The translations under genes were made by a program, and so were the position numbers. A DNA stretch of 64,000 nucleotides, taken from contig CAYLHQ010000023.1 in assembly GCA_964383585.1 (NCBI GenBank), positions 2,707 through 66,706 of the forward strand, read 5' to 3'. This document shows, piece by piece, positions 7,783 to 29,408 of the stretch. Source of the DNA: an uncultured Acidobacteriota bacterium. Its GTDB lineage: Bacteria; Acidobacteriota; Polarisedimenticolia; Polarisedimenticolales; DASRJG01. The first letter of the stretch is position 1; every line of letters begins with the position of its first letter. The notes beneath the pieces were generated by a model that did not search any database, was not told the DNA's origin, and worked only from the letters and a program-made list of their open reading frames with translations.

Positions 7783-8481
7783 TTACTCTCTCGCGGGATC
7801 CTCGATCCGGTACCCGACCCCGCGGACGGTCCCGAGCCACTGGGCGGCCGGTCCGAGCTTGCTCCTCAACCTTCGCATGTGAGTGTCGACCGTGCGGGAA
7901 AGGACGTCGCTGTCGTACCCCCAAACTTCCGACAGGAGCGCCTCGCGGGATCGGACCCTCCCGCGCGCTCGCACGAGGTCGGCGAGGAGGCGGAACTCGG
8001 TGATCGTGAGGGCGACCGGCTCTTTCTGGACGGTCGCGCGATGGGTGTCGAGATCGAGCTCGATGGGCCCGAAGCGCAGGACACGGGTCTCGGGCGCCTC
8101 CTCGACCGATCCGGACCGCTTGAGGACGGCCCGGACGCGAAGGACGACCTCGCGCGCGCTGAACGGCTTGGTCACGTAATCGTCGGCACCGAACTCGAAG
8201 CCGAGGACCCGGTCGATCTCCTCCCCCTTCGCCGTGAGGAGCAGGACGGGGACCGCCCGGGTCTCCTCCGCGCTCTTGAGGAGCTTCAGGACCTCGAGGC
8301 CCTGGATCTCGGGGAGCATGAGGTCGAGGATGACGAGATCGGGACGGTCCTTGCGGACGGCGTCGAGGGCCGACTTGCCGTCGTACGCGGAGACGACGTT
8401 CCACCCCTCGCGGCGGAAGACGTGCCCGAGGATCTCGACGATGTCCTTCTCGTCGTCGACGACCAGGATCTTGGGCGGCAT
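7783..8481 (-). CDS. OmpR/PhoB-family response regulator (no adjacent kinase)
   Basis: ILVVDDE, ILDLMLP, GADDYVTKPFS, winged helix SRTVDTHMRRLRSKL and TVRGVGY. Start set at ATG 8481. Confidence 0.93.
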   Translation of the reverse strand: MPPKILVVDDEKDIVEILGHVFRREGWNVVSAYDGKSALDAVRKDRPDLVILDLMLPEIQGLEVLKLLKSAEETRAVPVLLLTAKGEEIDRVLGFEFGADDYVTKPFSAREVVLRVRAVLKRSGSVEEAPETRVLRFGPIELDLDTHRATVQKEPVALTITEFRLLADLVRARGRVRSREALLSEVWGYDSDVLSRTVDTHMRRLRSKLGPAAQWLGTVRGVGYRIEDPARE

Positions 8482-8579: not shown

Positions 8580-9971
8580 TCAACGGGCGGCCCGGGCGGC
8601 TCGTTCCACCTGCTCGAGGTAGCGGGCCACGTCGTCCCGGGGTTTGATCTCCTGGGCGCGCTTGAGGAGCGGAACGGCCTCGCCGTAGCGGGCCTGGGAC
8701 ACGAGGAGCTGGGCGTGGCGGACCCGTGCGTCCGCCTCGAACCCCTCCAGGCTCTGCGCGCGCTCGTAGTAGAAGAGAGCCTTCTCGGCCTGCTCGACCC
8801 TCGCGTAGTGTTGCCCGAGGAGAAGGAGCGCCTCCCCGTCGAGCGGATCGAGCGCGACGATCTCCTCGAGGACGGCGGCGGCTTCGTCCCCCGCCCCCTC
8901 GGCGACCGCCACACGGGCTTCGAGCTTGAGGAGCTTCTTCCGGTCGGCCGGATCGATCCGGTCTCCGAGAACCTTCTTGACCTCCGCCATGAGGGCCGTC
9001 GCCTGTTCGAGCGCCCCTCGCTGCGCGAGGACCTCGACGTTGCGGAGCGGGCGCGCGGGGGCTTGTCCCGGGTCCTTCGCGAGGGCGAGGCCGTAGGCGC
9101 GGGCGGCGAGGTCCCACATCCCCTCGTTCACATAGATGTCCCCGAGCGTGTGGAGGGTTTGCACGGTCGCGCGGCCCATCCGTTCGACGATCTCGAAATT
9201 ATGAGCGGCCCGAAGGGGCTGGCCCAGTCCGAGGAAGGCGTTCGCCTGGAGGAGCCAGTAGTCTGCCCGGTCGGGCGACTTCGCGATCAACTCGTCGCAG
9301 AGGCTGACCGCCTCACCGTACCGCTGCTGCTTGAGAACCGACATCGTGAGGCCGAGCTTCCAGTCGATCGTCCCGGGGTCGAGGAGCATCGCGTTCCGAA
9401 ACGCCGATTCGGCGGCGAGGTGCTGCTCGAGCGACGAATAGGCGTACCCCAGCAGGCCGTAGACGGTCGAGTCCCCTCCGCCCAGCTCGATCACACGGCT
9501 CAGGGACTCGACCGCGGCGGCGTAGTCTCCCTGGCGGAACCGGATGATCCCGAGGTTCTTGTGCGCGCGGCGGAAGCTCGGGAACTTCTCGAGCGCGGTC
9601 CGGTAGCGGGCGGCGGCCGGGGCGAGCTCGCCGCGCTGAAAGTAGAGGTTGCCGATCGTGAAGTCGAAGACGGCGCTCGATTCGGGCGTCGTCGCCTCCT
9701 CGAGGGCGGCGAGCGCTGCGTCGGGTTCGGTCCCGAGCATCGGGAGGATCTTCTCCATCGTCTCGCGCTCGACGAGGGTCACCCGGGGCTCGATCTCGGC
9801 GTTCACCCCGTACGAGCCGAGGAATTCCTTGCGGAACTCCGGATCGTCCCAGAGTTCGAGCCCCGGAAGGGTCGGCTTCGGAATCACCTCTTCCCGGTCG
9901 CGCGCGGCGGCTCCCTGCGCCGCGACGATCGCGACCGCCAAGAGCGTCAGCTGGATCGGTTTCCGGACCAT
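8580..9971 (-). CDS. Secreted tetratricopeptide repeat protein (TtpD-like partner of a TonB system)
   Basis: Signal peptide and multiple TPR motifs (AHKNLGIIRFRQGDYAAA). Directly downstream of tonB. Confidence 0.85.
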   Translation of the reverse strand: MVRKPIQLTLLAVAIVAAQGAAARDREEVIPKPTLPGLELWDDPEFRKEFLGSYGVNAEIEPRVTLVERETMEKILPMLGTEPDAALAALEEATTPESSAVFDFTIGNLYFQRGELAPAAARYRTALEKFPSFRRAHKNLGIIRFRQGDYAAAVESLSRVIELGGGDSTVYGLLGYAYSSLEQHLAAESAFRNAMLLDPGTIDWKLGLTMSVLKQQRYGEAVSLCDELIAKSPDRADYWLLQANAFLGLGQPLRAAHNFEIVERMGRATVQTLHTLGDIYVNEGMWDLAARAYGLALAKDPGQAPARPLRNVEVLAQRGALEQATALMAEVKKVLGDRIDPADRKKLLKLEARVAVAEGAGDEAAAVLEEIVALDPLDGEALLLLGQHYARVEQAEKALFYYERAQSLEGFEADARVRHAQLLVSQARYGEAVPLLKRAQEIKPRDDVARYLEQVERAARAAR

Positions 9972-9996
9972 GGTCTTCGCTCCTCGACGACCGCGC

Positions 9997-10665
9997 TCAC
10001 GCGGCGTTGAAGGTGATCGGGACGCGCATGCGGAACTGGACCGGCTCGCCCTTTCGGGTGCCCGGCTCGAACTTCCACTGCTTGACCGCCTCGATCGCGG
10101 GACGCTCGAAGGCGGGGTCGGTCGACTGGTCGACCTTCGCGTCGGCGACGCGCCCCTGCCGGTCGACGGTGAAGAGGACGTAAACCGTTCCCTGGCGTTT
10201 CTGCTTTCGCAGTTCGGCGGGGTAGGTCGGCGGCCTCTGGAAGATCGGGCGCGGCTTCTGGTCGAGGTCGCTCAGGGAGAAAATCTCGTCGAGCCCCGCC
10301 CCCCCTCCCTCGACCAGTTGGTTGACGAGCTTGACGGTGAAATCGCCGAAAAGCCCTTCTCCGACCGTCGGTTCGAGCGCCATCTCGAGCTGGCTCAGGT
10401 CGAGCGGGGGAGCGCTCTCCGTCAGCTCGGGGGTGGACTCGGGCGCCTCCTCCTCCTCGACTTCCTCCTCCGGAGGGGGCGGAGGAGGAGGCGGGAGCTC
10501 GGCGACGTCGAGGTTTCGGATCTCGAGGTCCGCGTTCCTCTGGGCGCTGATCGTCTGGAGCACCGGCAGGACGAGGAAGAGGGAGAACGTGACCCCCGTC
10601 GCGAAGAGCGCCACGAGGACCCTTCCGAGGATCCGGCGGAGGAGGCTCTCCCTCTTGCGCTTCAT
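9997..10665 (-). CDS. tonB: Energy transducer TonB
   Basis: N-terminal TM helix, Pro/Glu-rich linker, C-terminal YPAE...QGTVYVLFTVDRQGRV...AVKQWKFEPG. Confidence 0.92.
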   Translation of the reverse strand: MKRKRESLLRRILGRVLVALFATGVTFSLFLVLPVLQTISAQRNADLEIRNLDVAELPPPPPPPPEEEVEEEEAPESTPELTESAPPLDLSQLEMALEPTVGEGLFGDFTVKLVNQLVEGGGAGLDEIFSLSDLDQKPRPIFQRPPTYPAELRKQKRQGTVYVLFTVDRQGRVADAKVDQSTDPAFERPAIEAVKQWKFEPGTRKGEPVQFRMRVPITFNAA

Positions 10666-10682
10666 CTCCGGACCGCTCCCTC

Positions 10683-11093
10683 CTACGACGCCTGGCGCCG
10701 GGAGGCGACGCTGACCTTCGTCGCTCCCGCGAGCTTGGCCTCGTCGACCACGCGGACGAAAAGCCCCGTCGGGACCAGCGCGTCCGCCTGGACGATCACG
10801 GGGACGTCCTCCTTCTGGAGCATCCGCTTGACGAGAGGGCGCACGCCCGAGATCCCGATGTCCCGGCCGCCGTACACCACGTTCCCGTCCGCGGTGATCG
10901 CGATCAGGATGCTCGTCTTCTCGAGACGGACCGCGGAGGCGGCCTGGGGCTTGTCGACCTCGACGCCGGTCTCCTCCACGAAGGTCGTCGTCACGATGAA
11001 GAAGATCAGGAGGATGAAGACGCAGTCGATGAGCGGGGAGATGTCGATCCCCCCGGTCTCTTCCTCCTCCGAGAACGAACGGAAGCGACCCAC
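10683..11093 (-). CDS. exbD: Biopolymer transport protein ExbD/TolR
   Basis: [21 protein letters not shown] motif. Confidence 0.93.
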
Positions 11094-11096
11094 GGA

Positions 11097-11750
11097 TCAG
11101 CCCTCCAATGCCCTGGGATCCACGGGGAGATTGAGGTGCGCCCGGCGGCGGACCTCTCGACGGGAAGCGAAGAACTGCAGGCAAACCGATTCGAGGTGGG
11201 CGAGAAACGCCCGGTACCGGTCCCTCTCGCGGGTCAGGTGGTACTGGAGGAAGAGGCCCGGAAGGGCGATGACGAGGCCGGTCTCGGTCGTGATCAGCGC
11301 CTCCGAGATCCCGCCCGCCACGAGGTTCATCGTCTTGTCCCCGCCGGAACCTTCCGCGAGCGCTCGGAAGGTCGAGAGCATTCCCGTGACGGTCCCGAGG
11401 AGACCGAGGAGGGGAGCCGCCGCCACGCAGATCTTCATGAAGCGCAGGTCGCGCGCGAAGGGGGCGATCTCGGTCGCGTGGAGCTCCCCGAAACGGATCT
11501 CGAGGTCCTTGATGCGGTCGGCCTCCATCACGAACTCGATCACGTCTCCGACGGGCCCCTCCCGCTCTTCGGGACGCGCGATCCAGCGCCGCCAAACCGT
11601 TTCGGGGACCGAACGGAAGCCGCGCCCGCGCAACTTCCACCAGAGGTTCCCCCCGACGGCGAACAGGAGAAGGGACGTGGCCGCGAGCGGAAACATCGCC
11701 CACCCTCCGGCCCCCCACACCTCGATCGCCTGGGAAACGAGTCCGCTCAT
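11097..11750 (-). CDS. exbB: MotA/TolQ/ExbB proton channel protein
   Basis: AAPLLGLLGTVTGM and GISEALITTETGLVIALP. Confidence 0.92.
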   Translation of the reverse strand: MSGLVSQAIEVWGAGGWAMFPLAATSLLLFAVGGNLWWKLRGRGFRSVPETVWRRWIARPEEREGPVGDVIEFVMEADRIKDLEIRFGELHATEIAPFARDLRFMKICVAAAPLLGLLGTVTGMLSTFRALAEGSGGDKTMNLVAGGISEALITTETGLVIALPGLFLQYHLTRERDRYRAFLAHLESVCLQFFASRREVRRRAHLNLPVDPRALEG

Positions 11751-13189
11751 GCCGCGCCGACCTCCGTCCCCTCCCGAACCTCGGAGCTCGAGGGGAGGCG
11801 ATTGAGCAGGGCGACTGCGGTCTTCTCCATGCCGTCGATCACCGCGCGGGACTTGCGGGAGAGGTACGCGTAGATCAGGAGGGACGGGATCGCGACGATC
11901 AGACCGAACTCGGTCGTGATCAGCGCCTCCGAGATCCCCGAGGAGAGAGTCTTCGCGTCCCCCGAGCCGAAGACCGTGATCAACTTGAACGTGCTGATCA
12001 TCCCCGTGACGGTGCCGAGCAGCCCCAGGAGCGGCGCGGCCGACGCGGAGAGGGCGATGAAGGGGAGGAATCCCTGGAGTTGGAGGCGGGTTTCGAGCAT
12101 CCGCTCGAACATCACCTCTTCGATGTAATCCTTCGGCTCTCCGATCTTGTCGACCCCGGCGCGGATCATCTCGCCGACGGGCCCCTGCACCCGCTCCGCG
12201 ACCCGGGCTGCGGCGGAGCGATCTCCATTTCGAACCGCCTCGAGGAGGGAGTCGATCGTGGCCGTCGAGGGGATTCGAACGCGGACGAGCTGCACCCATT
12301 TGAGGAGCGCGACCACGAGGGCCGCTCCGGCCATGAGGAGGATCGGGATCATCACCGGCCCGCCCTTCGAGATGTGCTCGAAGAGGGTCTCCTTCGTCTC
12401 CTCGACCTTCCTCGCGTTCCCGAGCGAAGGATCGAAGGGAAGCGTTCCCCTCCCGGAGGCGAGGAGGCCCGAGACGCTCGCCGCGAGTTCGGGGACCTCG
12501 ACCGGCACCATGTTCGGCTCGAGGGAGCCGAGCCGCTGCTCCGCCGTCCCCGCGCTCGAGCCGTCCTCGGCCGCGTAGACCGTGACCGGGCCGAGCAGCC
12601 CGAACGTCACCGCGCGCACCTTTCCGTCGGGTCCGACCGCGTCGCCGGCGAAGGTCGTCCCACCGACGAGGTCGAGAAGGCGGTCGACCGAGAGTTCCAC
12701 GACGTCGGTTTGCATCCCGAACGACTCCGCCGGAGACAGCGCCGTGTTCTCCTGGGCGAGCCGTCCCCGCTCGAGGGCGTCGCGGTAACGCTGCAGCTCC
12801 GCAATGTCGATCCGCGTCTCGAAGTTCCGCACGTACTCCCCGATCAAGTTCGAGAGGTAGGCGACCTCGTCCTGCCGCGCCTTCACCTCGTTCTGGAGGG
12901 TCGCGAAGTCGAGGTTCCGCGTGTCGACCGTCCGCCCGATCGACTCCTGTTCCGCGCGGAGCCGGGCGAGTTCCGCCTCGAGGTCGGCGACCTTCTTCGC
13001 CATCGGGATCTTCTCGGCGGCGATCCGCTCCCTCAGGGCCGCGAGTTCACGCAGGCTCGACTCGAGGTCTTTCTGGGCGGAACTCGCCGCGGCGTCGAAG
13101 GACTCCTGGGCGCGGGCCGCCCCGCCGAGGAGCAGGGCGGCCGCCAGGGCCGGCAGGGCGATGCGCCGGAACATCCGCGCGCTCCTCAT
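11747..13189 (-). CDS. Long ExbB-family protein with periplasmic coiled-coil N-terminus (TtpC-like)
   Basis: Signal peptide, coiled coil, C-terminal APLLGLLGTVTGMI and GISEALITTEFGL. Confidence 0.88.
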   Translation of the reverse strand: MRSARMFRRIALPALAAALLLGGAARAQESFDAAASSAQKDLESSLRELAALRERIAAEKIPMAKKVADLEAELARLRAEQESIGRTVDTRNLDFATLQNEVKARQDEVAYLSNLIGEYVRNFETRIDIAELQRYRDALERGRLAQENTALSPAESFGMQTDVVELSVDRLLDLVGGTTFAGDAVGPDGKVRAVTFGLLGPVTVYAAEDGSSAGTAEQRLGSLEPNMVPVEVPELAASVSGLLASGRGTLPFDPSLGNARKVEETKETLFEHISKGGPVMIPILLMAGAALVVALLKWVQLVRVRIPSTATIDSLLEAVRNGDRSAAARVAERVQGPVGEMIRAGVDKIGEPKDYIEEVMFERMLETRLQLQGFLPFIALSASAAPLLGLLGTVTGMISTFKLITVFGSGDAKTLSSGISEALITTEFGLIVAIPSLLIYAYLSRKSRAVIDGMEKTAVALLNRLPSSSEVREGTEVGAA

Positions 13190-13965
13190 CGGAGGGTCAC
13201 CGGCAGCGGCACGTACGCCGGGACGCTTTCGTTTTGGAGGATCGAGATCGCCTGCCGTACCGCCGGGGCGAGTTCGTTCGACTGGGTCCATTCCCAGCCC
13301 TCGTCGGACGGGACGCCGACCCCCGCCGCGGAGCCGTCGGCGGTCACGTAATACCCCTGGCCGAGCCCGAGGTAGAGCGCCTGGACCTCGACGCGCGCTC
13401 CGTCCGAGAGGGTGCGGATCTCGCTCGCGACCGTCACGTCGCGTTGGAACTTGTTCACCTCGTTCAACACGCCGATGACGTTCTGGTAGCGCTCCCCCAG
13501 AGAGAGAGCGGTCGCCGCGCCGCGCCCGGGGAGACGTTGGCTCAAGGGAGCCACCCGCGCGCGGAGGGGCTCTGGCGATCGGGAGAGGAGCGTTCGGACC
13601 TTGCCCTCGAGGCGTTCCACCCTCTCGGCGAGCACGGCCGTCGCCGCTCGGAGGGACTCTCCCTCCCTCACCAGATCGTAACGGCGCCGGTCGGCCTCGC
13701 CGAGGGTGTTCCGGGACTCCGCCACCTTCGCTTCGAGCGAGCGGATCTCGCTCTCGAGGAGCTCGATCCTTCGCTCGAGGATCTCCTTGCCGTCCTGCCA
13801 GTCCTTCTTTTCGCGCGCCAGGATTTGCTGGGTCTCGACCCACTTGGCGACGGTGTCCCGCGCCGACTGGAGATTCGGCTGCGCCGGCTCCTGGGCGATG
13901 GAGGCCGTCGCCCCGGCGAGCAGCAGCGCCCCGATCCACGCGTGGAAGCGTCCGATCGTTTTCAT
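13186..13965 (-). CDS. DUF3450-family periplasmic coiled-coil protein (TtpB-like)
   Basis: Signal peptide, coiled coil, VQALYLGLGQGYYVTADG motif, position just before the long ExbB. ATG 13965 has a GGAG SD. Confidence 0.78.
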   Translation of the reverse strand: MKTIGRFHAWIGALLLAGATASIAQEPAQPNLQSARDTVAKWVETQQILAREKKDWQDGKEILERRIELLESEIRSLEAKVAESRNTLGEADRRRYDLVREGESLRAATAVLAERVERLEGKVRTLLSRSPEPLRARVAPLSQRLPGRGAATALSLGERYQNVIGVLNEVNKFQRDVTVASEIRTLSDGARVEVQALYLGLGQGYYVTADGSAAGVGVPSDEGWEWTQSNELAPAVRQAISILQNESVPAYVPLPVTLR

Positions 13966-13994
13966 GCCATTCACTCCCGTGCTCCCTGAGATCG

Positions 13995-14022
13995 TTTCAC
14001 GACGAGGTTTCGGTCCTGTTAC
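13995..14022 (-). promoter_or_regulatory. Conserved tripartite operator (Pho-box-like), copy 1
   Basis: Plus strand TTTCAC-N5-GGTTTC-N5-TGTTAC, same hexamers and spacing as 18345-18372. Confidence 0.6.
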
Positions 14023-14043
14023 AAGGAGATGAATTTCTCGGGC

Positions 14044-17000
14044 TCACCACGCGTAGGAGACCGACAGCGAGATCAGGACCGGCGTTTCCCGCCGGGTCTT
14101 GAGGCGCTCCTCGCCGGTCGGGAGGCGGTAGACCGAATCCCGATCCGGGCTCAGGAGGTTCCTCCCGCGGAGGGTCACGGTCGCGCCGTCGATCTTCTGG
14201 CTGACGGAGACGTCGAAGACGGCGTGGGCGACGTCGAAGACGTTCGGGATCCCGCCGTCCTGGCCGACCGAAGCCCCCGTCAGGAGCGTGTCCCCGGTCC
14301 GGTTGTAGAACAGGCCGGCGGAGGTTCCCGTCCGATCGTTGTCGTAGGTGATGTTGAAATTAAAGACGTCGGCCGGCTGTCCCTGGAGGCGCCGCGTGTC
14401 GCTCCCGAGACCGAAGACCGCCAGGTTCTGGCGTTCTTCGGCCGGGATGTCCACCTCGGAGTCGATCCGGCTGTAGTTCCCCCCCACCACGATCCCCCGG
14501 AGCCAGGACACCCACCGCCCGAGGCTCGCTCGCGCTTCCAATTCGATCCCCTTCGCCCGGCCCGTCTCGTAGTTCACCGGCTGGATGTAGGTCGCCCCGG
14601 CGGCGACGAAGCTGATCAGCTCGATCGGGTCGGTGATGTCTTTCTCGAAGAGGCTCGCCGCGAGGACGTCCCCCTCGTCCCGAAACCACTCCCAGCGGAC
14701 GTCCCAGTTCTCGACCCCCGACAGGCGCAGGTCCGGGTTCCCGAGGAAGGAGTCGCCCGCGAGGAACTCTTCCGTGCCGACCGGCGCCAATTCGCGGTAC
14801 GTCGGGCGGGCGAGGGTCCTACTCCACGACGCGCGGAGGTTCATGCGCGGCACCACCTCCCACACCACGCCGAGCGACGGGAGCCAGGAGGCATCGGAGA
14901 CGTCGGCGACCGCCTCTTCCTGCGGCACGTTCGGGTCGACCACGTAAGTCCCGTTCTCGTTCCGGAACGCGACGGACACGCGGCCGAACGCCTCGTTGAT
15001 CGGGACGATCGAAATGTCGGTGCCCTCCCAGCGCGCCCCGCCGACCAGACGGACCTTCGAGGAAAGGGGGAGGTCGCCCATCGCGTAGGCCGCCCGGATC
15101 GTCTGGTCGCCGTCGTAGATCACGTCCTCGGCGAGACGGTTCGCGTACCAGAGCAACTGGCTCGGCTGGGCGCAGGTGCGGTTCTGGAACGCCGTCGTCG
15201 GGGGCTCGCAGCGATTCTCCGAAAGCCCGATGCGTTCCGGCGCCAGGAAAAAGTCGGTCCAGAGCGCGTCGGGCCCCGAGAGAACCGCGCTCCCGTACGT
15301 GTTGTTGATCGACGCCTGCTCGTTCGACGCCGGCTGGCTGAACTGGAACGCGTAGAAGAACGAGTTCTGGTCGTACTCGCGGGTGGATCCTTCGTGGTAA
15401 AGGCCGGCCTTGAGACGACCCTCCGAGTCGCTCCACTGCGTGAAGGGAAGCACGAGATTCAGGGACGCCTGCTCGCTCCGCTCGTGGATGTCGCGGAAGA
15501 TGCGGCGCGTCTTGAGCGTGTCCGGTATCGCCCCGATCTCGAAGAAGGCGGTGTTCGTCGTCGGGTCGAACACGTTCCGGAAGAAGCGGACGTCCGGCTC
15601 GTACTGGCGCGTGAGGTTTCCGGCGGCGAACCAGTCGACCTCGAGCCCGGAAAACCCTCGCGCGCCCGAGGACCCGAGAAGGTCCGGCCAACGATGGCCC
15701 CCGTGCACCTGAAGCGACGCGAGGCTGCGCTGGGTGTACTTGAGGCTCTGATTCTGGAGAGTGGTGCCGCGGTCTTCGGTCTGAAATCTCGCCTCGTCCT
15801 CGGCGCTCTGGTTCCCGACGAACCGGACGGAGTAGTGGTGGTCGTCCCCCACCTCCCAGTCGAGCGTGCCGAGCGCCCCGATGAGAAGCTCCTCGGTGCC
15901 CCGGCTGTCCTCGCGAGCCGTTCGCGTGAATTGAGGCGTGTTCGTCTCGGGGTCGACCTGCACGTCGACGCGGTCGTTCACGGCCCCTTCGTAGAAGTCG
16001 TACTTCCTGGAATACGTGAGGGCGGCGAGAGCGCCGAAGAGGCCGCTCGTCGTGTCCCACCGGTCTCCCCAAACCCCCGACAGCCCGAAGCCCGCCCCGG
16101 GTGCATCCCGGGACGTTCCGATCACCGGAGTGAACGATCGCGTGAAGGCGTCGTACTGCTCCGCGATCGCGATCCTGCGCGCGAGTTCCTCCGACGTGAT
16201 TCGCGTCCCCCCGGGTCTGTTGTCGTCGATCCGGCTGTAGTTCACCGGGGCGGGTGTGTCGGTCGGCGGGGCCTTCGCCGCGTCGGGGAGTGCGCGATCG
16301 CCGTTGTCGAAGCCGCTCCAGGAGACCCCGCCCCCACGGTAGGTCAGGAAGGCGTCTTCCCCTGTCGCGAGGTTCGAGTACTCCCCCGAGACCGAGATCT
16401 TCGCGATCCGTTCCTCGGGGATGGTCTTGGTCACGATGTCGACGCCGCCTCCGGAGAAGTCTCCTTGGAGGTCGGGCGTGAAGGTCTTCGTCACCGTGAC
16501 GCTCTCGATCGTTCCGGTCGGGAAGAGATCCATCTGGACCGCGCGCTTCCTGGGGTCGGCGCTCGGGACGCGAACGCCGTTGAGCGTCGTCCCGGTGTAG
16601 CGGTCCGAAAGCCCGCGCACGGTCGCGTACTTTCCGTCGGCGACCGAGGCTCCGACGACGAGCCGGAGGGCTCCCGCGGCGTCGCCCACTCCCGCCTTGC
16701 TGATCAGCTCCGCCGAAACCGCGTCCTGCACGGTGACCGCGTCGGCACGCACCTCGAGAAGAGCGATCTCGGTCCCTTCGAGCAGGTCGGTGCCGGTCAC
16801 GACCATCTCCTCGAGCTCCACCACCTCGAGGCTCAATTCGGCACGAATCTCGGAGAGCTTCCCCGGCGTGACGACGACTCCGGTACGCGTCGCCCTCCCG
16901 TACCCGTCCTTGGCGAAGACGACCGTGTACGTCCCGGCGGGAAGGCGGTCGAAGACGAACGACCCGTCGGGTCCGGTCGTCCGGTTCTGCGCGGCCTCGA

Positions 17001-17154
17001 CGACGGTCACGCGTGCGTCGGCGAGCGGGACGCCGTAATCGAGGTCGACCACCACCCCGCGCAGCGCGCCGACCGCCCCCTCCTGGGAAAACGTCGGCCC
17101 GACGAAGGAGAGCGAGAAGGCGAGCGTGACGACCGGCCAGAGACGACGTGTCAC
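14044..17154 (-). CDS. TonB-dependent receptor with N-terminal carboxypeptidase-regulatory-like domain
   Basis: Signal peptide, GALRGVVVD...LADARV domain, plug (VRGLSDRYTGTTLNG, FTPDLQGDFSGGGVDI), beta-barrel, terminal ISLSVSYAW. GTG overlaps the upstream TGA. Confidence 0.93.
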   Translation of the reverse strand: MTRRLWPVVTLAFSLSFVGPTFSQEGAVGALRGVVVDLDYGVPLADARVTVVEAAQNRTTGPDGSFVFDRLPAGTYTVVFAKDGYGRATRTGVVVTPGKLSEIRAELSLEVVELEEMVVTGTDLLEGTEIALLEVRADAVTVQDAVSAELISKAGVGDAAGALRLVVGASVADGKYATVRGLSDRYTGTTLNGVRVPSADPRKRAVQMDLFPTGTIESVTVTKTFTPDLQGDFSGGGVDIVTKTIPEERIAKISVSGEYSNLATGEDAFLTYRGGGVSWSGFDNGDRALPDAAKAPPTDTPAPVNYSRIDDNRPGGTRITSEELARRIAIAEQYDAFTRSFTPVIGTSRDAPGAGFGLSGVWGDRWDTTSGLFGALAALTYSRKYDFYEGAVNDRVDVQVDPETNTPQFTRTAREDSRGTEELLIGALGTLDWEVGDDHHYSVRFVGNQSAEDEARFQTEDRGTTLQNQSLKYTQRSLASLQVHGGHRWPDLLGSSGARGFSGLEVDWFAAGNLTRQYEPDVRFFRNVFDPTTNTAFFEIGAIPDTLKTRRIFRDIHERSEQASLNLVLPFTQWSDSEGRLKAGLYHEGSTREYDQNSFFYAFQFSQPASNEQASINNTYGSAVLSGPDALWTDFFLAPERIGLSENRCEPPTTAFQNRTCAQPSQLLWYANRLAEDVIYDGDQTIRAAYAMGDLPLSSKVRLVGGARWEGTDISIVPINEAFGRVSVAFRNENGTYVVDPNVPQEEAVADVSDASWLPSLGVVWEVVPRMNLRASWSRTLARPTYRELAPVGTEEFLAGDSFLGNPDLRLSGVENWDVRWEWFRDEGDVLAASLFEKDITDPIELISFVAAGATYIQPVNYETGRAKGIELEARASLGRWVSWLRGIVVGGNYSRIDSEVDIPAEERQNLAVFGLGSDTRRLQGQPADVFNFNITYDNDRTGTSAGLFYNRTGDTLLTGASVGQDGGIPNVFDVAHAVFDVSVSQKIDGATVTLRGRNLLSPDRDSVYRLPTGEERLKTRRETPVLISLSVSYAW

Positions 17155-18311
17155 CACGGGTCCCCGAGTCCGTCGCGGAGCCGTTCGAGCCGGGACTCCC
17201 GATCCTGGGTCAGATCGAGGTCGAAGCGGGCCATCGCCCGGCAGATCTCGACGACGGCCAGGGCGCGCGGGCGGGCGTTTTCGAGGGCCGTGGCCCGCGT
17301 CAGAGCTTCGTCGAGCAGCCGCCCGGCCCGGGTATCGTCCCCCGCGGCTTTCCAAGCCCCGGCCAGGTTGGCGAGGACCGCCGGCTGTTCGATCACCGGA
17401 ACCCGGTCGACGGACGGATCCGCGGTCGCCAACAGGCGTCGGGCTCGGGCGGGGTCCCCCTGGGCGGCCCATCCGCGCGCGACCTCCGCGACGAGGGGCC
17501 CCTTGAGCGGTTCGCGATCGGAGATCTTGGTCGCGATCGTCTCCGCCTCTTCGAGGCACGCCCGAGCATCCCGCTTGCGGCCCGCCTTGCGATACTCGGC
17601 GGCGAGAACCGGAAGGTTCTCGGCGCGCTGCCAAGGGGCCAGCTCGGAGGCCGCGGCACGCCCGCCGTCGAGGAGCCTCCTTCGGTCCTTCTTCGAAAGT
17701 GTCCCGACGCGAGAGGCTTCGACATGACCGTGGAATTTCCACCAGGCCGACTCCGGGTCGAACTCGGCGTCGACACCCGCGAGGACCGCGAGGGCGTCGT
17801 CGACGCGTCCGTGGCGAGCGAGGGTGACCGCCGCCGCCGCCCCGGCCTTCCCGGAGTATTGCTTGTCGGACGCGGCCAGCTCGGCGGCGGCCTCCTGCGA
17901 GACCTCGGGATCCCCGAGGAGCGCGCGCGCCCAGAGGATGTGCGACTGGACCCGGAGCCCCTGCCATCCTTCCGCCCGGGAGCGCACCCCCTCCGCCTGC
18001 GCAAGGAGGACGCGAGCGTCGTCGGGACGGCCGCGCCGGGCCATCTCCGCGGCCACCTCGGCGTAGGCGACGCCCTGCCGCCAGCCCTCGACACGCCCCG
18101 CCTCGACGGCGGCCCCGTCCGGGTCCCCCGCCGTCGCCCGCTCGAGCACCACCGCCTCTTGGGCGCGGGCGCGGTCCTTCTCGTCGGACTCGATCGCGGA
18201 GGCGAACGCGAAACCCCAGTCGAGGGCCGAGCGCGGCCGGTCTGGCGGAACGGCCGCGGCGGCGGCGGTCAAGCAGAGCGCGACGGCGGCTGGAAACGAA
18301 CGACGACGCAT
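17151..18311 (-). CDS. Secreted alpha-helical repeat (TPR-like) hypothetical protein
   Basis: Signal-like MRRRSFPAAVALCLTAAAAA and Ala-rich helical repeats. Stop overlaps the receptor start. Confidence 0.7.
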   Translation of the reverse strand: MRRRSFPAAVALCLTAAAAAVPPDRPRSALDWGFAFASAIESDEKDRARAQEAVVLERATAGDPDGAAVEAGRVEGWRQGVAYAEVAAEMARRGRPDDARVLLAQAEGVRSRAEGWQGLRVQSHILWARALLGDPEVSQEAAAELAASDKQYSGKAGAAAAVTLARHGRVDDALAVLAGVDAEFDPESAWWKFHGHVEASRVGTLSKKDRRRLLDGGRAAASELAPWQRAENLPVLAAEYRKAGRKRDARACLEEAETIATKISDREPLKGPLVAEVARGWAAQGDPARARRLLATADPSVDRVPVIEQPAVLANLAGAWKAAGDDTRAGRLLDEALTRATALENARPRALAVVEICRAMARFDLDLTQDRESRLERLRDGLGDPW

Positions 18312-18344
18312 GGTGGGCTCCGTGACGAACATGGCGACGGATAC

Positions 18345-18372
18345 TTTCACGGTCGGGTTTCGAGACTGTTAC
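18345..18372 (-). promoter_or_regulatory. Conserved tripartite operator (Pho-box-like), copy 2
   Basis: TTTCAC-N5-GGTTTC-N5-TGTTAC, 34 bp upstream of ATG 18311. Confidence 0.6.
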
Positions 18373-18405
18373 GAATTCTTGAAATCGATCGAACGCGCTC
18401 GCTCG

Positions 18406-18445
18406 AAAAAAAGGGCGGCGGAGGCCGACCGTGCCTCCGCCGCCC
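18406..18445 (-). terminator. Rho-independent terminator after the large secreted protein
   Basis: 13-bp perfect stem gggcggcggaggc/gcctccgccgccc with a 7-nt loop, followed by a T tract on the minus strand. Confidence 0.85.
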
Positions 18446-18471
18446 CGAGGAGCGATCGTTCGAACCGCGGA

Positions 18472-21400
18472 CTACGGGCAGACCACCCCGACCCGCTCGA
18501 CCCCGTTCGAGCGGTAGCCGAGGGTTCCGTTTCCGCAGGGATTGCTTCCACGGACGAGGTAGTGGAAGACCTGACCCGCCGCCGGAACGGTGGCGTCCGT
18601 CGCCTGGGTGTCCGCGTCGTTCTTCTCGACACAGGTCGCGATGGTGAAGTCCGACGCGGAGGTCGAACGGACGACGTCGTATCCGAGGTTGTTGAACGTG
18701 AGCCCGGTCCAGGAGAAGAGGTCCTTGCTCACGAAGGAAACCCCTTCGACTTCGTCCGGAACGGCGTTCGGGAAGTTGACGGTGTCGCACACGGGGAAGT
18801 ACCCGAGCCGCGACAGGGTCGACCAGCCGATCGCCCAGTTGTTCGGGTTCGCGAACGCTCCGCGGTAGGACGCCGGCTCGAAGAAGCCGTCGACCGGGGC
18901 CGCCTTCGCGTTCGTCTTGAGGCTGCTGCCGTCGGACGGCCTGGGGTCGATCACGACCGTCGGGTTCGGCTTGGTCGCGTCGGCGAGCGTTTCTCGGACG
19001 AGCGTTCGGATGGGAAGGGCCGAACCGCAGGTCAGGTACTCGTTCGCGAGCGAGGCGTTCGAGAACACGTCGAGGAACGACCGGCCCCGGTGGATCTTCC
19101 CGGTGTCCCCGCCGTAAGTCACGCCTTCATCCACGCAGGTCTCGCCCACGGGGCAGTCGGCGTTCGTGCAGCAGGCCTGTGTCGTCGTCACGCTGCACGT
19201 CGCGCCCGGCACCCGGTTCGGAATCGACTCCGACCCCGCGCACCACCACGAGTTGTTCGAGAAGAACAGCTCCTTGTCGTTCGCCTCGTCCGGAGCGAGG
19301 TAGTACACCCCGTCCGCCACGTAGTTCGTGTTGTACCGCTCGCCGGACGATCCGGCGCCCTGGCAGCTCGTGCCCGTCCCCTCGACCAGCATCGTCGCGC
19401 CGCCGAAATCGAGGAATGCGCTGTTGTAGTACCGCGCCCCGGCGTTGTCTCGAATGTGCAGTGCGGCGTTCTTCAGACGGTCGGTGTAGGTCTTCTGGCC
19501 CTGACCCACCATCGTCACGTTGTAGAAGACGGGGGTCGTCCGCGGGAGACTCGTGTCGGGCCCGTTCCCCCCGTCGTGCTCCCCGCCCTTGTCCGACTTG
19601 TCGGGACCGGGAAGGCCCTGGAGGATGAACGCGTATTGGACCTTCCCGCGCCACCCCTCGTCGTAGTCGAGGCCGTCGTCCCCGCAGGCCGCCCCGATGA
19701 AGTGCTTCAGATTGGCCGCCCCGCCGAACCACTCGACGCAGTCGTCCTTGTTCTGGACCACCTCGATGTAGTCGAGGTCGGTCTCCCGGCCCACCGCGCC
19801 GAGCGTCAGGCCGTTGATCTCGTTGTTGCCGCCGATCACGAACCCGCCGTAGCGGAGCGACGTGTAGGTCACCGCCCCGCTGTCGCCGTCGTCGCAGTTC
19901 CGGCCGTAGGGGCCAGGGAGGAACGCCGCGCAGTTCCCGTAGAGACCCTTCCCCGCGTTCGGGTCGAGACCCTCGATCTGGAACTCCCGCGTCGGGTCGG
20001 GACCGGCCGCCGTGTTGTTCGCCACGTACCCGTATCCGAGGAGGATCAGGCCGCCCCAGTTCGACGTGAGCGCACGGGCGGTTGCGGCGCTGTCGTAGGG
20101 AGCGGTCCCCGGGAAGCCCCGCACGTTGTCGTCGTCGAGGTCGGTGAAGACGATCGGCTTTTCCGCAGTGCCGCGGGCGACGATCTTCGCCCCACGGGTG
20201 ATGATGAGGGCACCGGGGTCCTTGGCGCCGGCGGAAGACTCCGGCTCGTTTCGGACGACCGTCCCGGGCTCGATCGTGAGCGTGGCGCCGTTCGTCACGT
20301 AGACCTGGTTCTGGAGGACGTACTCGTTGTCGGCGGTCCAGGTCTGGCTGCTGGTGATGTCGGCCGAGACGTTGACCTGAGTCCGCGGCGGGAAGTATCC
20401 GAGCCTCGAGAGGGTCGACCAACCTTCCGCCCAGTTCGACGTCCCGAAAGCGCCCCGGTAGGAGACCGGCTCGAAGAACCCGTCGACCGGCGTGGCCTTC
20501 ACGTTCGCGAGGAGAGGCGAACCCGTCGCCGGCCTCGGGTCGATCGAATTGACGGGATCCGGCTTGCTCGCGTCGAGCAGGGCCTCGCGTCCGAGAGCCC
20601 GGATCGGGAGGGCCGAACCGCAGGTCAGGTACTCGTTCGCGAGCGAGGCGTTCGAGAACACGTCGAGGAACGACCGGCCCCGGTGGATCTTCCCGGTGTC
20701 CCCGCCGTAAGTCACGCCTTCATCCACGCAGGTCTCGCCCACGGGGCAGTCGGCGTTCGTGCAGCAGGCCTGTGTCGTCGTCACGCTGCACGTCGCGCCC
20801 GGCACCCGGTTCGGAATCGACTCCGACCCCGCGCACCACCACGAGTTGTTCGAGAAGAACAGCTCCTTGTCGTTCGCCTCGTCCGGAGCGAGGTAGTACA
20901 CCCCGTCCGCCACGTAGTTCGTGTTGTACCGCTCGCCGGACGATCCGGCGCCCTGGCAGCTCGTGCCCGTCCCCTCGACCAGCATCGTCGCGCCGCCGAA
21001 ATCGAGGAATGCGCTGTTGTAGTACCGCGCCCCGGCGTTGTCTCGAATGTGCAGTGCGGCGTTCTTCAGACGGTCGGTGTAGGTCTTCTGGCCCTGACCC
21101 ACCATCGTCACGTTGTAGAAGACGGGGGTCGTCCGCGGGAGACTCGTGTCGGGCCCGTTCCCCCCGTCGTGCTCCCCGCCCTTGTCCGACTTGTCGGGAC
21201 CGGGAAGGCCCTGGAGGATGAACGCGTATTGGACCTTCCCGCGCCACCCCTCGTCGTAGTCGAGGCCGTCGTCCCCGCAGGCCGCCCCGATGAAGTGCTT
21301 CAGATTGGCCGCCCCGCCGAACCACTCGACGCAGTCGTCCTTGTTCTGGACCACCTCGATGTAGTCGAGGTCGGTCTCCCGGCCCACCGCGCCGAGCGTC

Positions 21401-22062
21401 AGGCCGTTGATCTCGTTGTTGCCGCCGATCACGAACCCGCCGTAGCGGAGCGACGTGTAGGTCACCGCCCCGCTGTCGCCGTCGTCGCAGTTCCGGCCGT
21501 AGGGGCCAGGGAGGAACGCCGCGCAGTTCCCGTAGAGACCCTTCCCCGCGTTCGGGTCGAGACCCTCGATCTGGAACTCCCGCGTCGGGTCGGGACCGGC
21601 CGCCGTGTTGTTCGCCACGTACCCGTATCCGAGGAGTATCAGGCCGCCCCAGTTCGACGTGAGCGCACGGGCGTCCTGAAGGTTGTCGTAGGGCGGAGTC
21701 CCGAGGCTCGAGCCGATGTTGTCGTCGTCGAGGTCGGTGAAGGTGATGGGAGCCAGGAGGGTCCCCAAGGCCTTGATTTTCGCCCCGCGCGTGATGATGA
21801 GCGCGCCGGGATCTTTCGCTCCCGGGGCCGATTCGGGATCTCCGCGGACGATCGTGCCCGGCTCGATCGTGAGCGTGGCACCGTTCGTCACGTAGATCTG
21901 CTTGTCGAGACAGTACTGTTTGTCCGCAGTCCACGTGGTGCTCGTGGTGATGTCGGCGGTGACCACCTCGTCGCAGTCCGGAATCAGCTGCGCATGGGCC
22001 GACACCGCTGCGGCGAGCCACAGCCCCGCGACCGCCATCGTCGCGACCAAGTATTTCCTCAC
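18472..22062 (-). CDS. Large secreted protein (about 1196 aa): two tandem copies of a beta-helix-like domain plus a C-terminal Cys-containing domain
   Basis: SD AAGGAGGAG before GTG 22062, signal peptide. Repeated motifs LTIEPGT, WGGLILLG, NEINGLTLGAVG, DDCVEWFGG and DDGLDYDEGWRGKVQY match a family I recall occurring beside TonB-dependent receptors. Confidence 0.85.
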   Translation of the reverse strand: MRKYLVATMAVAGLWLAAAVSAHAQLIPDCDEVVTADITTSTTWTADKQYCLDKQIYVTNGATLTIEPGTIVRGDPESAPGAKDPGALIITRGAKIKALGTLLAPITFTDLDDDNIGSSLGTPPYDNLQDARALTSNWGGLILLGYGYVANNTAAGPDPTREFQIEGLDPNAGKGLYGNCAAFLPGPYGRNCDDGDSGAVTYTSLRYGGFVIGGNNEINGLTLGAVGRETDLDYIEVVQNKDDCVEWFGGAANLKHFIGAACGDDGLDYDEGWRGKVQYAFILQGLPGPDKSDKGGEHDGGNGPDTSLPRTTPVFYNVTMVGQGQKTYTDRLKNAALHIRDNAGARYYNSAFLDFGGATMLVEGTGTSCQGAGSSGERYNTNYVADGVYYLAPDEANDKELFFSNNSWWCAGSESIPNRVPGATCSVTTTQACCTNADCPVGETCVDEGVTYGGDTGKIHRGRSFLDVFSNASLANEYLTCGSALPIRALGREALLDASKPDPVNSIDPRPATGSPLLANVKATPVDGFFEPVSYRGAFGTSNWAEGWSTLSRLGYFPPRTQVNVSADITSSQTWTADNEYVLQNQVYVTNGATLTIEPGTVVRNEPESSAGAKDPGALIITRGAKIVARGTAEKPIVFTDLDDDNVRGFPGTAPYDSAATARALTSNWGGLILLGYGYVANNTAAGPDPTREFQIEGLDPNAGKGLYGNCAAFLPGPYGRNCDDGDSGAVTYTSLRYGGFVIGGNNEINGLTLGAVGRETDLDYIEVVQNKDDCVEWFGGAANLKHFIGAACGDDGLDYDEGWRGKVQYAFILQGLPGPDKSDKGGEHDGGNGPDTSLPRTTPVFYNVTMVGQGQKTYTDRLKNAALHIRDNAGARYYNSAFLDFGGATMLVEGTGTSCQGAGSSGERYNTNYVADGVYYLAPDEANDKELFFSNNSWWCAGSESIPNRVPGATCSVTTTQACCTNADCPVGETCVDEGVTYGGDTGKIHRGRSFLDVFSNASLANEYLTCGSALPIRTLVRETLADATKPNPTVVIDPRPSDGSSLKTNAKAAPVDGFFEPASYRGAFANPNNWAIGWSTLSRLGYFPVCDTVNFPNAVPDEVEGVSFVSKDLFSWTGLTFNNLGYDVVRSTSASDFTIATCVEKNDADTQATDATVPAAGQVFHYLVRGSNPCGNGTLGYRSNGVERVGVVCP
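19016..21673. repeat. Intragenic direct repeat: about 1065 bp (19016-20080 vs 20609-21673), offset 1593 bp, essentially identical
   Basis: Identical translations in several frames of the ORF track. One mismatch seen (20044 vs 21637). Flanks diverge abruptly. Confidence 0.93.
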
Positions 22063-22217
22063 GACCTCTCCTCCTTGGGAACGCTTGTAGGGTTTCGTCG
22101 GCTGCATTGGACCCCTGCCCGGCGACGGAGCGCGGAAGACCCGGTGACTGTTCGGTGAAGAATCGGATCGAACCGACCGCCGCCCGCGGCATCCTGGCCG
22201 ACCGTTGCTTCCGGCTC

Positions 22218-22244
22218 GTCACGGCCGCGTCACGCCTTCGTGAC
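22218..22244. promoter_or_regulatory. Pho-box-like direct repeats in the divergent promoter region
   Basis: GTCAC (22218), GTCAC (22229), GTGAC (22240): 11-bp period. Confidence 0.6.
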
Positions 22245-22417: not shown

Positions 22418-23635
22418 ATGAACGACGGGCTGGCGCGCAGTCCACGGTTGTCGGCCGCGATCGCGATCGCTCTTCTCCTGGGCGCACCGGCGGCATTCGC
22501 GGAGAAGGAGAGGAAGACGATCGAGGTGGATGTTTCGAAGGGGGGCCTCACGGTCTCCTCGGGAGAGACGAGTTTCCACCTCGGAGGCTACATGCACCTC
22601 CTCTACAGCGGCGTCGACCGTGAACGGTACGACGCGGACGACTCGGGGACCGGTGTCGGCGTGGAGGATGGGTACTCCTCGTCGTTCTCGGTCCGCCGCG
22701 CCCGAATCGAGATGAAGGGCACGATGTACCGGAATTGGCTGAAGTACGCGATCACGTACGAGCTCTCCGAGACCTTGGGGAGCAACGACTCGAAGATCAA
22801 AGACGTCTACCTTCGGTTCGCCAAGTTCGACGGGGCGCACCTGATGGCCGGCCAATACAAGGTCCCGTTCAGCATGCAGGAGCTGACCTCCGACACCCGG
22901 CAGCAGTTCGTCGACCGGTCGATCACGAACGTCTTCGCGCCGGCTCGGGACCAGGGAGTGACCGTGACCGGGACCTTCCTCGAGAAGAAGCGGCTGGGCT
23001 ACGCCGCCGGAGTCTTCAACGGCTCGGGCGACGCGATCCGCCAGGAGGACCAGGGCCTTCTGTTCGTCGGCCGCGTCTGGTTCGACCCCTTCGGCGAGTT
23101 CGAACTCGTGGAGGGGACGGTCGACGCGGGAGAGCGCCACGACTGCCACTTCGGCCTCGCCTACCGGACGGGAGAAGTGGCGCGGTTCACGAAAGACGAC
23201 GGGATCTTCCAAGACCCCGACGATCAAACGGCCGTCAATTTCGAGGCCGCCTGGCGCTGGAACCGCCTCGCCGCGACCGCCGAGTACTTCGTGCAGACGA
23301 ACGAGTTCGCGAACCCTGTGGCCGCCCCCGACCTCGACCAGGAAGGCTGGCACGCCCAGATCGCCGTGGCCGCGATCCCGCAGAAGCTCGAACTGGGGCT
23401 CCGCTTCGCGATGGTCGACGGCGACACCGGCGCTTCGAACGCGCGGTCGACCGAAACCCGCTTCGGGGTCCAGTACTACATCCTGAAGTACAACCTAAAG
23501 ATCCAGGCCGACCTCGTCCGCCTCGACTTCGAGCCCGAAGCGATCGGTCGATCGAACGGCGGCCGTCTTCCGGACGCGGCCGGGCAAGACGTCACCGACG
23601 ACCAGATCCGAATCCAGGCTCAGCTGGCCTTTTGA
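22418..23635 (+). CDS. Phosphate-selective porin (OprO/OprP family)
   Basis: Signal peptide, [32 protein letters not shown], terminal QAQLAF. Lies upstream of pstS. Confidence 0.88.
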
Positions 23636-24639: not shown

Positions 24640-24656
24640 GATCCGGAGGCGACGCG

Positions 24657-26921: not shown

Positions 26922-26932
26922 AGGGGCACGGA

Positions 26933-28558: not shown

Positions 28559-28562
28559 GAGG

Positions 28563-29408
28563 ATGGAGACGATGTCCGTGGTGAACTCCGAGCGCCCCTC
28601 CCGGGAGGAACCGATGACGGCCCCCCTCGACCCCGCCGTCCATCCGGAGGTGAAGGACCCGATCCTCGAGGTCGACCTCCTCTCTCTCTGGTACGGGTCG
28701 TCCCAGGCCTTGCGCGACATCTCGCTCCGCATCCCCGCCAGGAAGATCACCGCCTTCATCGGCCCCTCGGGTTGCGGAAAGTCCACGCTCCTGCGCTGTT
28801 TCAACCGGCTCAACGACCTTGTCGAAGGGGTCCGGATCGCGGGCACGATCCGCTTCGAGGGGGGAAACATCCACGACCCCGCCCTGGACGTCAACGCCCT
28901 GCGCGCCCGGATCGGGATGGTCTTCCAGAAGTCGAACCCCTTCCCGAAGTCGATCTACGAGAACGTCGCCTTCGGGTGCAGGATCCAGGGGATCAACCGG
29001 AAGAAGGACCTCGACCCGATCGTCGAGAAGAGCCTCCAGGGGGCCGCCCTTTGGGACGAAGTCAAGGACCGGCTCGACGAGAGCGCCCTGGGGCTCTCGG
29101 GCGGCCAGCAGCAGCGCCTGTGCATCGCCCGCGCGATCGCCGTCGAGCCGGAGGTGATTCTCCTCGACGAGCCGTGCTCCGCCCTCGATCCGATTGCGAC
29201 CGCGAAGGTCGAGGAACTGATGCTCGAGCTCAAGAACCGCTACACCCTCGTCATCGTGACCCACAACATGCAGCAGGCGTCGCGCGTGTCGGACCTGACG
29301 GCGTTCCTGTACCTCGGAACCCTGGTGGAGTACGGGGAGACGGAGCGCCTCTTCGTCAACCCGCTGAAGAAGCAGACCGAGGACTACATCACGGGCCGCT
29401 TCGGATAG
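28563..29408 (+). CDS. pstB: Phosphate ABC transporter ATP-binding protein
   Basis: [40 protein letters not shown]. Confidence 0.97.

Follow-up and report, generated by a model that had tools for sequence, protein, structure and literature searches.

A beta-helix protein and TonB-dependent receptor of the ElpS/FII/BT4056 type, with a dedicated TonB energiser, in a phosphate gene cluster of an uncultured Acidobacteriota bacterium

A run of nine co-oriented genes in a 64,000-nucleotide stretch of DNA from an uncultured Acidobacteriota bacterium (GenBank assembly GCA_964383585.1, contig CAYLHQ010000023.1, positions 2,707 to 66,706 of the forward strand), hereafter called the window, is probably a Pho-controlled, TonB-energised outer-membrane module for phosphorus acquisition. 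The first gene of the run encodes a secreted beta-helix protein of 1196 amino acids, which on the basis of its Pfam family and synteny belongs to the ElpS/FII/BT4056 family, and proteins of this family were nearly always encoded beside one subfamily of TonB-dependent receptors. Both the pair and its induction by phosphate starvation have been published, and the system is not of a new kind. New are the tandem, non-lipoprotein architecture with apparent concerted evolution of the units, a conserved helical protein as partner, a TonB motor of the Ttp type dedicated to the system, an orphan paralogue of PhoB, the full embedding of the run between OprO/P-pst-pho and ppx/CHAD genes, and a conserved Pho-box-like element.

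Genes were called from third-position G+C and a simple codon-position model; because the window has approximately 70 % G+C, raw lists of open reading frames were full of spurious frames. Families were assigned to the predicted proteins with local Pfam and NCBIfam profile libraries. The initial annotation of this DNA had described nine co-oriented genes, divergent from porin-pstSCAB-phoU-phoBR, and the same nine minus-strand genes were recovered at 8580-22062. They are listed from the first gene onwards, together with a hairpin and with the receptor and energiser components.

18472-22062, minus strand: secreted beta-helix protein, 1196 amino acids (PF28492 via a database protein; signal peptide, two units, Cys-rich C-terminal domain of approximately 100 amino acids)
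18412-18446, minus strand: intrinsic-terminator-like hairpin just 3' of the beta-helix gene (14-bp stem, 12 G-C pairs, T7 tail)
17151-18272, minus strand: exported helical protein resembling tetratricopeptide repeat (TPR) proteins, 373 amino acids (weak TPR_19 match; family without a Pfam model)
14044-17157, minus strand: TonB-dependent receptor, 1037 amino acids (CarboxypepD_reg, Plug and TonB_dep_Rec barrel; TonB-box-like EEMVVTG)
13186-13974, minus strand: TtpB-like DUF3450 protein, 262 amino acids (Pfam)
11747-13189, minus strand: TtpC-like long MotA_ExbB protein, 480 amino acids (Pfam/NCBIfam)
11097-11750, minus strand: ExbB (MotA_ExbB), 217 amino acids (Pfam/NCBIfam)
10683-11093, minus strand: ExbD, 136 amino acids (Pfam/NCBIfam)
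9997-10665, minus strand: TonB (TonB_C), 222 amino acids (Pfam/NCBIfam)
8580-9971, minus strand: TtpD-like protein with multiple TPR families, 463 amino acids (Pfam/NCBIfam)

Independent loci from metagenomes and genomes have the genes in the same order, and the arrangement is therefore not one of chance. Given the hairpin 3' of the beta-helix gene, the run may be covered by more than one transcript.

The 1196-amino-acid protein gave zero family matches in the local Pfam and NCBIfam libraries. The family PF28492 (Beta_helix_4) is newer than the local Pfam copy, and its assignment was taken from Pfam matches precomputed on database proteins, including the window's own protein (P0001). In the protein database 1,231 relatives were found at E ≤ 1e-5, the nearest named ones being from Candidatus Polarisedimenticolia and other Acidobacteriota, and PF28492 was present on 360 of 360 homologues among the matches listed. 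With a Flavobacteriales member as query, at least 7,988 proteins were found at E ≤ 1e-10 among 8,000 scored candidates. The link to ElpS of Caulobacter crescentus (CC_0170), FII of Flavobacterium johnsoniae (Fjoh_0546) and BT4056 of Bacteroides thetaiotaomicron was made via the Pfam family and synteny bridges in Sphingomonas and Flavobacteriales, not by direct alignment; searches seeded with Flavobacteriales and Sphingomonas homologues returned no F. johnsoniae, B. thetaiotaomicron or Caulobacter entries.

For a neighbourhood survey 93 loci were fetched, 86 of which were in the neighbourhood scan and seven were added later. The scan queries were the window's own proteins together with PPK1 and VTC taken from two loci, and counts were made over 42 non-redundant loci with at least 7 kb of flank on both sides. 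A homologous receptor gene adjoined the beta-helix gene in 41 of the 42, and paired loci spanned Acidobacteriota, Verrucomicrobiota, Planctomycetota, Bacteroidota, Zixibacteria and Proteobacteria. The number of units in the beta-helix protein ranged from one to four across the family, and Bacteroidota members carried either a lipobox or a C-terminal domain of the type IX secretion system (T9SS). The protein of the window is thus a non-lipoprotein, tandem variant of the family.

The Flavobacteriales bridge consists of three loci (L045, L063 and L091) with a PF28492 lipoprotein of 450-480 amino acids, a CarboxypepD_reg receptor and PhoBR-like genes; tblastn with the window beta-helix protein against a Flavobacteriales locus gave 42 % identity over 310 amino acids. 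These loci match the layout of Fjoh_0542-0546, and Fjoh_0546 was compared through them. The receptor-lipoprotein pairs of Flavobacterium, which the initial annotation had mentioned without claiming that they were related, are by Pfam family and synteny of the same family as the pair in the window. In a Sphingomonas parapaucimobilis replicon (L087) a lipoprotein gene (lipobox LSAC) is followed by a receptor gene and gspN/D/E/F, exactly the lipoprotein-receptor-type II secretion system (T2SS) order of cc0170/cc0171 that has been reported in Sphingomonas (PMC2996285). The Sphingomonas lipoprotein was 34 % identical to window unit 1 over 296 residues (BLASTP, E 2e-30), the receptor matched that of the window at E 5e-47, and the Sphingomonas proteins also carry PF28492. 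ElpS-like synteny was likewise found in a replicon of Indioceanicola profundi (L089), with a two-unit protein of 956 amino acids and a winged-helix regulator upstream. In both replicons the two genes of the pair are followed immediately by a T2SS operon (gspN, D, E, F, G). A further candidate bridge, labelled uncultured Hyphomicrobiales (L036, CAYXMM010000007.1), was rejected: it is of low G+C, its beta-helix protein carries a T9SS tail and its receptor resembles those of Bacteroidota, and it is probably a mis-binned Bacteroidota contig.

A pst, phoU, ppk1, ppx or VTC gene was present within 10 kb in nine of the 42 loci, which belonged to several phyla. This is a large enrichment compared with approximately 2-3 % for a random 20-kb window, the background being our own estimate. 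The case for phosphate, which had been drawn initially from the setting of the run in the window, rests on this enrichment and on published induction data, not on universal linkage. One locus (L001) repeats the whole layout of the window, including pst, phoU, phoBR, the porin and ppx. In L003 the order is ppk1, receptor, beta-helix protein (T9SS), pstCAB and phoU; in L004 a gene with a VTC polyphosphate-polymerase domain lies near the pair; and in L091 a kinase and a regulator precede the beta-helix lipoprotein, the receptor, a Na/Pi-PhoU gene and Porin_O_P. In the window itself the run is flanked by the following features.

22144-22244, no strand: Pho-box-like half-site cluster (GTCAY at 11-bp spacing) in the divergent promoter region
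22448-23635, plus strand: phosphate-selective porin O/P (Porin_O_P; Pfam), divergent from the beta-helix gene
23677-29408, plus strand: pstS, pstC (754 amino acids), pstA (541 amino acids) and pstB (Pfam/NCBIfam)
29420-32204, plus strand: phoU, phoB and phoR (Pfam/NCBIfam)
7783-8481, minus strand: orphan OmpR/PhoB-family response regulator (Pfam/NCBIfam), with no kinase beside the gene
6205-7755, minus strand: exopolyphosphatase Ppx/GppA (NCBIfam exopolyphosphatase model 281 bits, under the 307-bit cut-off)
4589-6166, minus strand: CHAD-domain protein (Pfam)

The run had been described as leading into ppx and CHAD genes. Both are present downstream, but the orphan response regulator, which had been missed, lies between them and the run. 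PstC (24657-26921, plus strand) and PstA (26933-28558, plus strand) are approximately double the normal length, and the permease domain of each is C-terminal; those of L001, with 722 and 525 amino acids, are long forms too.

The beta-helix and porin genes diverge from an intergenic region of 385 bp, which contains the single exact occurrence of GTCAY-N6-GTCAY in the 64 kb (GTCACGGCCGCGTCAC at 22218-22233; 0.19 expected), and an overlapping inverted half-site reaches 22244. With one mismatch allowed, four of the nine sites in the window were at 22144-22244. L001, L008 and L009 also have the exact motif within the 450 bp that precede the orthologous gene, and L002 has a copy with one mismatch; the scan of upstream regions in more distant phyla gave no GTCAY-N6-GTCAY. 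The PhoB box of Escherichia coli is CTGTCAT at 11-bp spacing. The classic E. coli-type Pho box, TGTMAY-N5-TGTMAY, had no match in the window.

On the PhoB model the orphan regulator scored 235 bits and the PhoB of the pst-pho operon 228. The orthologue of the orphan regulator, not pst, accompanies the cassette of TonB energiser genes in L002, L009, L011, L013 and L034. An OmpR/PhoB-type regulator was found in 12 of the 42 well-flanked loci. PhoB, its orphan paralogue or both probably drive expression of the run through the 11-bp-spaced GTCAY repeats. That a kinase-less regulator travels with the cassette could also be understood if the receptor were a sensor or transducer, reporting an external cue together with the beta-helix protein, for example to this regulator, and a sensing role was raised for CC_0171, the receptor beside ElpS (Le Blastier et al., PMC2996285). 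Deletion of cc0171, however, did not stop ElpS production (PMC2996285). The receptor of the window has no FecA-type signalling extension and there is no pair of anti-sigma and extracytoplasmic function sigma factors beside its gene; a full six-gene motor would moreover be costly for a sensor, and such a role appears highly improbable.

The six genes after the receptor gene (DUF3450, long ExbB, ExbB, ExbD, TonB, TPR) correspond in Pfam families and order to TtpB-TtpC-ExbB-ExbD-TonB-TtpD. The likeness to the Vibrio TonB2-type (Ttp) architecture, already pointed out in the initial annotation, holds for all six genes of the published layout (PMC6957404). At the thresholds set, the full cassette from DUF3450 to TPR was found in seven of the 42 loci; an eighth, L001, has the cassette with ExbD under its threshold. 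Overall, at least 12 loci from four phyla have the same cassette together with the beta-helix protein/receptor pair, and so does Pseudoalteromonas; the carriers include Acidobacteriota, Verrucomicrobiota, Planctomycetota and one unassigned genome. It was not seen beside the Bacteroidota pairs in the loci examined. The recurrence of the motor beside the pair argues for a central role of energy-dependent transport through the receptor, and the possession of a six-gene TonB motor of its own argues that the system of the window exists for energised transport. In Pseudoalteromonas donghaensis, a culturable gammaproteobacterium (L088, NZ_CP032091.1, 226161-238374), the cassette is followed by a three-unit beta-helix protein of 1366 amino acids and then by the receptor, and its proteins were 32-48 % similar to those of the window over the conserved parts. 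This locus and the published Vibrio TonB3 operon suggest that TonB3-type systems may serve ElpS-type receptors.

The receptor had its best NCBIfam match to TIGR01782 (TonB-Xanth-Caul), at 226 bits under a cut-off of 310. No SusC model was among its NCBIfam matches, no SusD Pfam match was found anywhere in the run, and a sequence and profile search of the PDB with the receptor was empty. The start of the receptor gene overlaps the stop codon of the gene for the 373-amino-acid protein. The family of the latter comprises 743 representatives (50 % clustering, E ≤ 1e-3), nearly all of 380-410 amino acids (approximately 390), and has no Pfam model; Acidobacteriota members start with a plain signal peptide, those of Planctomycetota and Lentisphaerae with a lipobox. 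Among the loci examined, the helical protein was found only with non-lipoprotein, multi-unit variants of the beta-helix protein. It may be an adaptor or SusD-like lid, or alternatively a periplasmic partner or chaperone.

The beta-helix protein consists of a type-I signal peptide (..AVSAHA/QL; N-terminus VRKYLVATMAVAGLWLAAAVSAHA/QLIPDC), two tandem units of 531 amino acids and a Cys-containing C-terminal domain of approximately 100 amino acids. The units share a stretch of 1028 bp with 100 % DNA identity (19016-20043 and 20609-21636), the flanks of which are 62-86 % identical. In 12 two-unit orthologues the two units of one protein were 75-93 % identical to each other, compared with 56-63 % to the units of more distant orthologues and 81-86 % to the closest, P0002. 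Long identical runs between units were seen in independent assemblies also. The pattern indicates that the units undergo ongoing gene conversion, that is, concerted evolution. An assembly artefact was considered as the source of the perfect internal repeat of 1 kb and was ruled out, as independent assemblies show the same homogenisation within the protein. The C-terminal 110 or so amino acids (18475-18810, minus strand) are conserved (..FYYLVRA.N.CG.GTLG..S.G.ER.G..C) and also end single-unit relatives; non-Bacteroidota members end in this domain where Bacteroidota carry the T9SS tail. The domain had zero matches in Pfam or the PDB, and from its position it may be a sorting or anchoring signal.

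One unit was modelled, with an alignment of 80 sequences, as a right-handed beta-helix of mostly short beta-strands, with a predicted local distance difference test score (pLDDT) of 87 and a predicted template modelling score (pTM) of 0.91. This model superseded a first, poor one from 14 sequences (pLDDT 62). The secreted, tandem beta-helix-like protein of the initial annotation was thus recovered, with its signal peptide and two units. Sequence and profile searches of the PDB with the protein were empty, and Foldseek comparison with the PDB, which the initial annotation had proposed as a check, gave only generic right-handed parallel beta-helices (tailspikes, PL3, PL6 and PL9 lyases, GH28 and NosD), the best at E 2e-3, with template modelling (TM) scores of at most 0.26 and 6-12 % identity, the general fold alone being in common. 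Membership of a polysaccharide lyase or GH28-type enzyme family was rejected, there being no lyase or hydrolase Pfam match, no PDB sequence match and only these weak Foldseek matches.

The residues invariant over 80 diverse sequences (E193/N195, D218/D219/E222, D240/D241/D244/D246, E273/D275 and R316/D317/N318) are dominated by carboxylates and spaced approximately one helix rung apart along the sequence. They may form a putative metal-binding groove, in the manner in which Ca2+-dependent lyases hold polyanions.

Taken as a module for phosphorus acquisition, the run would be switched on by Pho-type regulators, that is PhoB, its orphan paralogue or both, and the hairpin after the first gene would let the beta-helix protein exceed the receptor in amount. 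On or near the cell surface the beta-helix protein would bind a phosphorus-containing ligand, which is probably polyanionic and held by metal, because the invariant residues are a row of Asp and Glu with Arg and Asn at intervals of approximately one rung. The ligand would be handed to the adjoining CarboxypepD_reg receptor, which would be opened by the cassette's own TtpB-TtpC-ExbB-ExbD-TonB-TtpD motor, and imported. The 373-amino-acid TPR-like exported protein would serve as an accessory partner, either as lid or adaptor or as a periplasmic chaperone. In the periplasm the ligand, or phosphate freed from it, would feed PstSCAB, the operon of which diverges from the shared promoter region, and Ppx and the CHAD protein would handle polyphosphate within the cell. 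Candidate ligands are polyphosphate, phytate, nucleic-acid or teichoic-acid fragments and metal-phosphate complexes. A narrower version is doubtful, in which the beta-helix protein is a 'phosphophore': an abundant scavenger, secreted or at the surface, with an acidic groove that is loaded with metal and would bind inorganic phosphate, whether as orthophosphate, as metal-phosphate complexes or as short polyphosphate, before hand-over to the receptor.

Several observations weigh against phosphorus import. No phosphate gene was present within 10 kb in 33 of the 42 homologous loci, so that the neighbourhood survey proposed in the initial annotation bore out the linkage in part only. The match to the Pho box is limited to the GTCA core and the spacing. 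Refolded ElpS had no phosphatase activity, and deletion of elpS left the alkaline phosphatase activity of the supernatant unchanged (PMC2996285). AlphaFold-Multimer gave few high-confidence contacts between BT4055 and BT4056 (bioRxiv 10.1101/2023.03.17.533168). The beta-helix protein of the window has neither a lipobox nor a T9SS tail by which it could reach the surface or stay there. Its fold is common to polysaccharide lyases and hydrolases, so a glycan ligand is compatible with it.

The first and the last of these points would fit uptake of a substrate without phosphorus, such as an acidic glycan or a metal chelate, by a system that merely lies beside pst in some lineages. The fold is that of pectate, alginate and chondroitin lyases and of tailspikes, and Vibrio TonB2, with the same layout of the cassette, serves iron uptake (PMC6957404). 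Such a substrate is nevertheless rather unlikely: the matches to glycan enzymes were weak, as given above, phosphate neighbours recur across unrelated phyla, the promoter region contains the Pho-box-like motif, and in F. johnsoniae the loci inducible by low phosphate, including Fjoh_0545/0546, were tightly repressed under nitrogen and iron limitation (Lidbury et al., PMC8115612).

In Myxococcus, Oar is needed for secretion of the protease PopC, and the receptor of the window has an Oar-like N-terminal CarboxypepD_reg domain. The receptor and TonB motor could similarly export or display the beta-helix protein. Once outside, this protein would work by itself, for instance as an activator of phosphatases or a scaffold for them, and nothing would be imported. 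The protein of the window has a Sec signal peptide only, with no adjacent T2SS, and ElpS arrives at the surface independently of the T2SS and on overproduction raises extracellular phosphatase activity (PMC2996285). However, Bacteroidota homologues with their own export signals (lipobox or T9SS) keep the receptor alongside, and the pairing therefore does not hinge on any export requirement. The alphaproteobacterial pairs have a T2SS beside them, and BT4056 was modelled as a lid on the outer face of BT4055 (bioRxiv 10.1101/2023.03.17.533168). A role of the receptor in export is thus considered unlikely, and import of a phosphorus-containing ligand is preferred.

Annotation of the remaining part of the window, 32-64 kb, gave no secretion system for the beta-helix protein. 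Small proteins with cohesin and fn3 domains are encoded at 39846-41263 (minus strand), a cluster for polysaccharide or glycoconjugate biosynthesis occupies 41.5-60.8 kb, and a protein of more than 1014 amino acids with thrombospondin type-3 repeats (60957-63998, plus strand) runs past the end of the window.

ElpS-type pairs are very common, and they are among the strongest phosphate-starvation-induced surface components in Flavobacterium and are also induced in Caulobacter. The pair of the window is wired to phosphate machinery, having a promoter region shared with OprO/P-pstSCAB-phoU-phoBR, a PhoB paralogue of its own and ppx/CHAD genes downstream. Were the ligand identified, models of how bacteria scavenge phosphorus in soils, sediments and oceans would gain a new route, and TonB3-type systems might also be given a function. 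If the beta-helix protein were a phosphophore, the system would be the first energised outer-membrane route for inorganic phosphate, alongside the passive OprO/P porin, and the orphan TonB3 systems found in vibrios and Alteromonadales would be accounted for by the TonB3-like motor.

Among known systems, the energiser is comparable with the TonB2 and TonB3 operons of Vibrio, which encode TtpB (DUF3450), TtpC, ExbB, ExbD, TonB and TtpD (TPR) (Barnes et al., PMC6957404). TonB2 is Fur-regulated and serves siderophores, and the TonB3 operon, which additionally opens with a receptor gene, has no iron role (PMC6957404). The window has the same six genes in the same order and, like TonB3, a leading receptor gene; the likeness is one of composition and order, and the context is a phosphate cluster where that of TonB2 is iron.

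ElpS is a phosphate-starvation-induced surface lipoprotein of C. crescentus, encoded beside the receptor CC_0171 and a T2SS, and it is released by a T2SS-dependent protease (Le Blastier et al., PMC2996285). The systems have in common the Pfam family (via the Sphingomonas orthologue), a homologous adjacent receptor and the connection with phosphate starvation, and ElpS is located extracellularly or at the surface. ElpS, however, is a single-unit lipoprotein of approximately 50 kDa (lipobox LAGC) with a T2SS alongside, whereas the protein of the window has two units and a C-terminal domain, no lipobox and no T2SS, and its locus contains in addition the helical protein, a TonB system of its own and the pst-pho genes.

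In F. johnsoniae, phosphate depletion resulted in massive induction of Fjoh_0545, a receptor, and of Fjoh_0546, the 'hypothetical lipoprotein FII' with a pectin-lyase fold, the two being clustered with OprP (Fjoh_0542), PhoR and PhoB; the FII paralogue FI was the most abundant exoprotein, with 18.7 % of the exoproteome, and Lidbury et al. related the F. johnsoniae proteins to Caulobacter ElpS (PMC8115612). FII/Fjoh_0545 and the paralogues FI and FIII (PUSIII/PUSIV) likewise combine a beta-helix exoprotein with a CarbopepD_reg/Plug receptor, with OprP and phoBR. Unlike the window protein, the Flavobacterium proteins are single-unit lipoproteins or T9SS cargo, with neither a TonB cassette nor a helical partner adjacent.

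BT4056 of B. thetaiotaomicron is a putative 'lid' of the receptor BT4055, the pair being adjacent in 621 genera, and models place it on the outer face of the receptor (Price and Arkin, bioRxiv 10.1101/2023.03.17.533168). The proximity of receptor and beta-helix protein is the same in the window and in the surveyed loci, although BT4056, the putative lid, is a small lipoprotein, and the tandem protein of the window with its separate helical partner may dock differently. The SusCD and PusCD systems, some of which are induced by phosphate depletion, follow the same logic of a surface binding partner with a CarboxypepD_reg TonB-dependent transporter. The run of the window differs from SusCD in having no SusC signature and no SusD match, its partner being a beta-helix and not a SusD-type helical lid; the 373-amino-acid TPR-like protein could play a role analogous to that lid.

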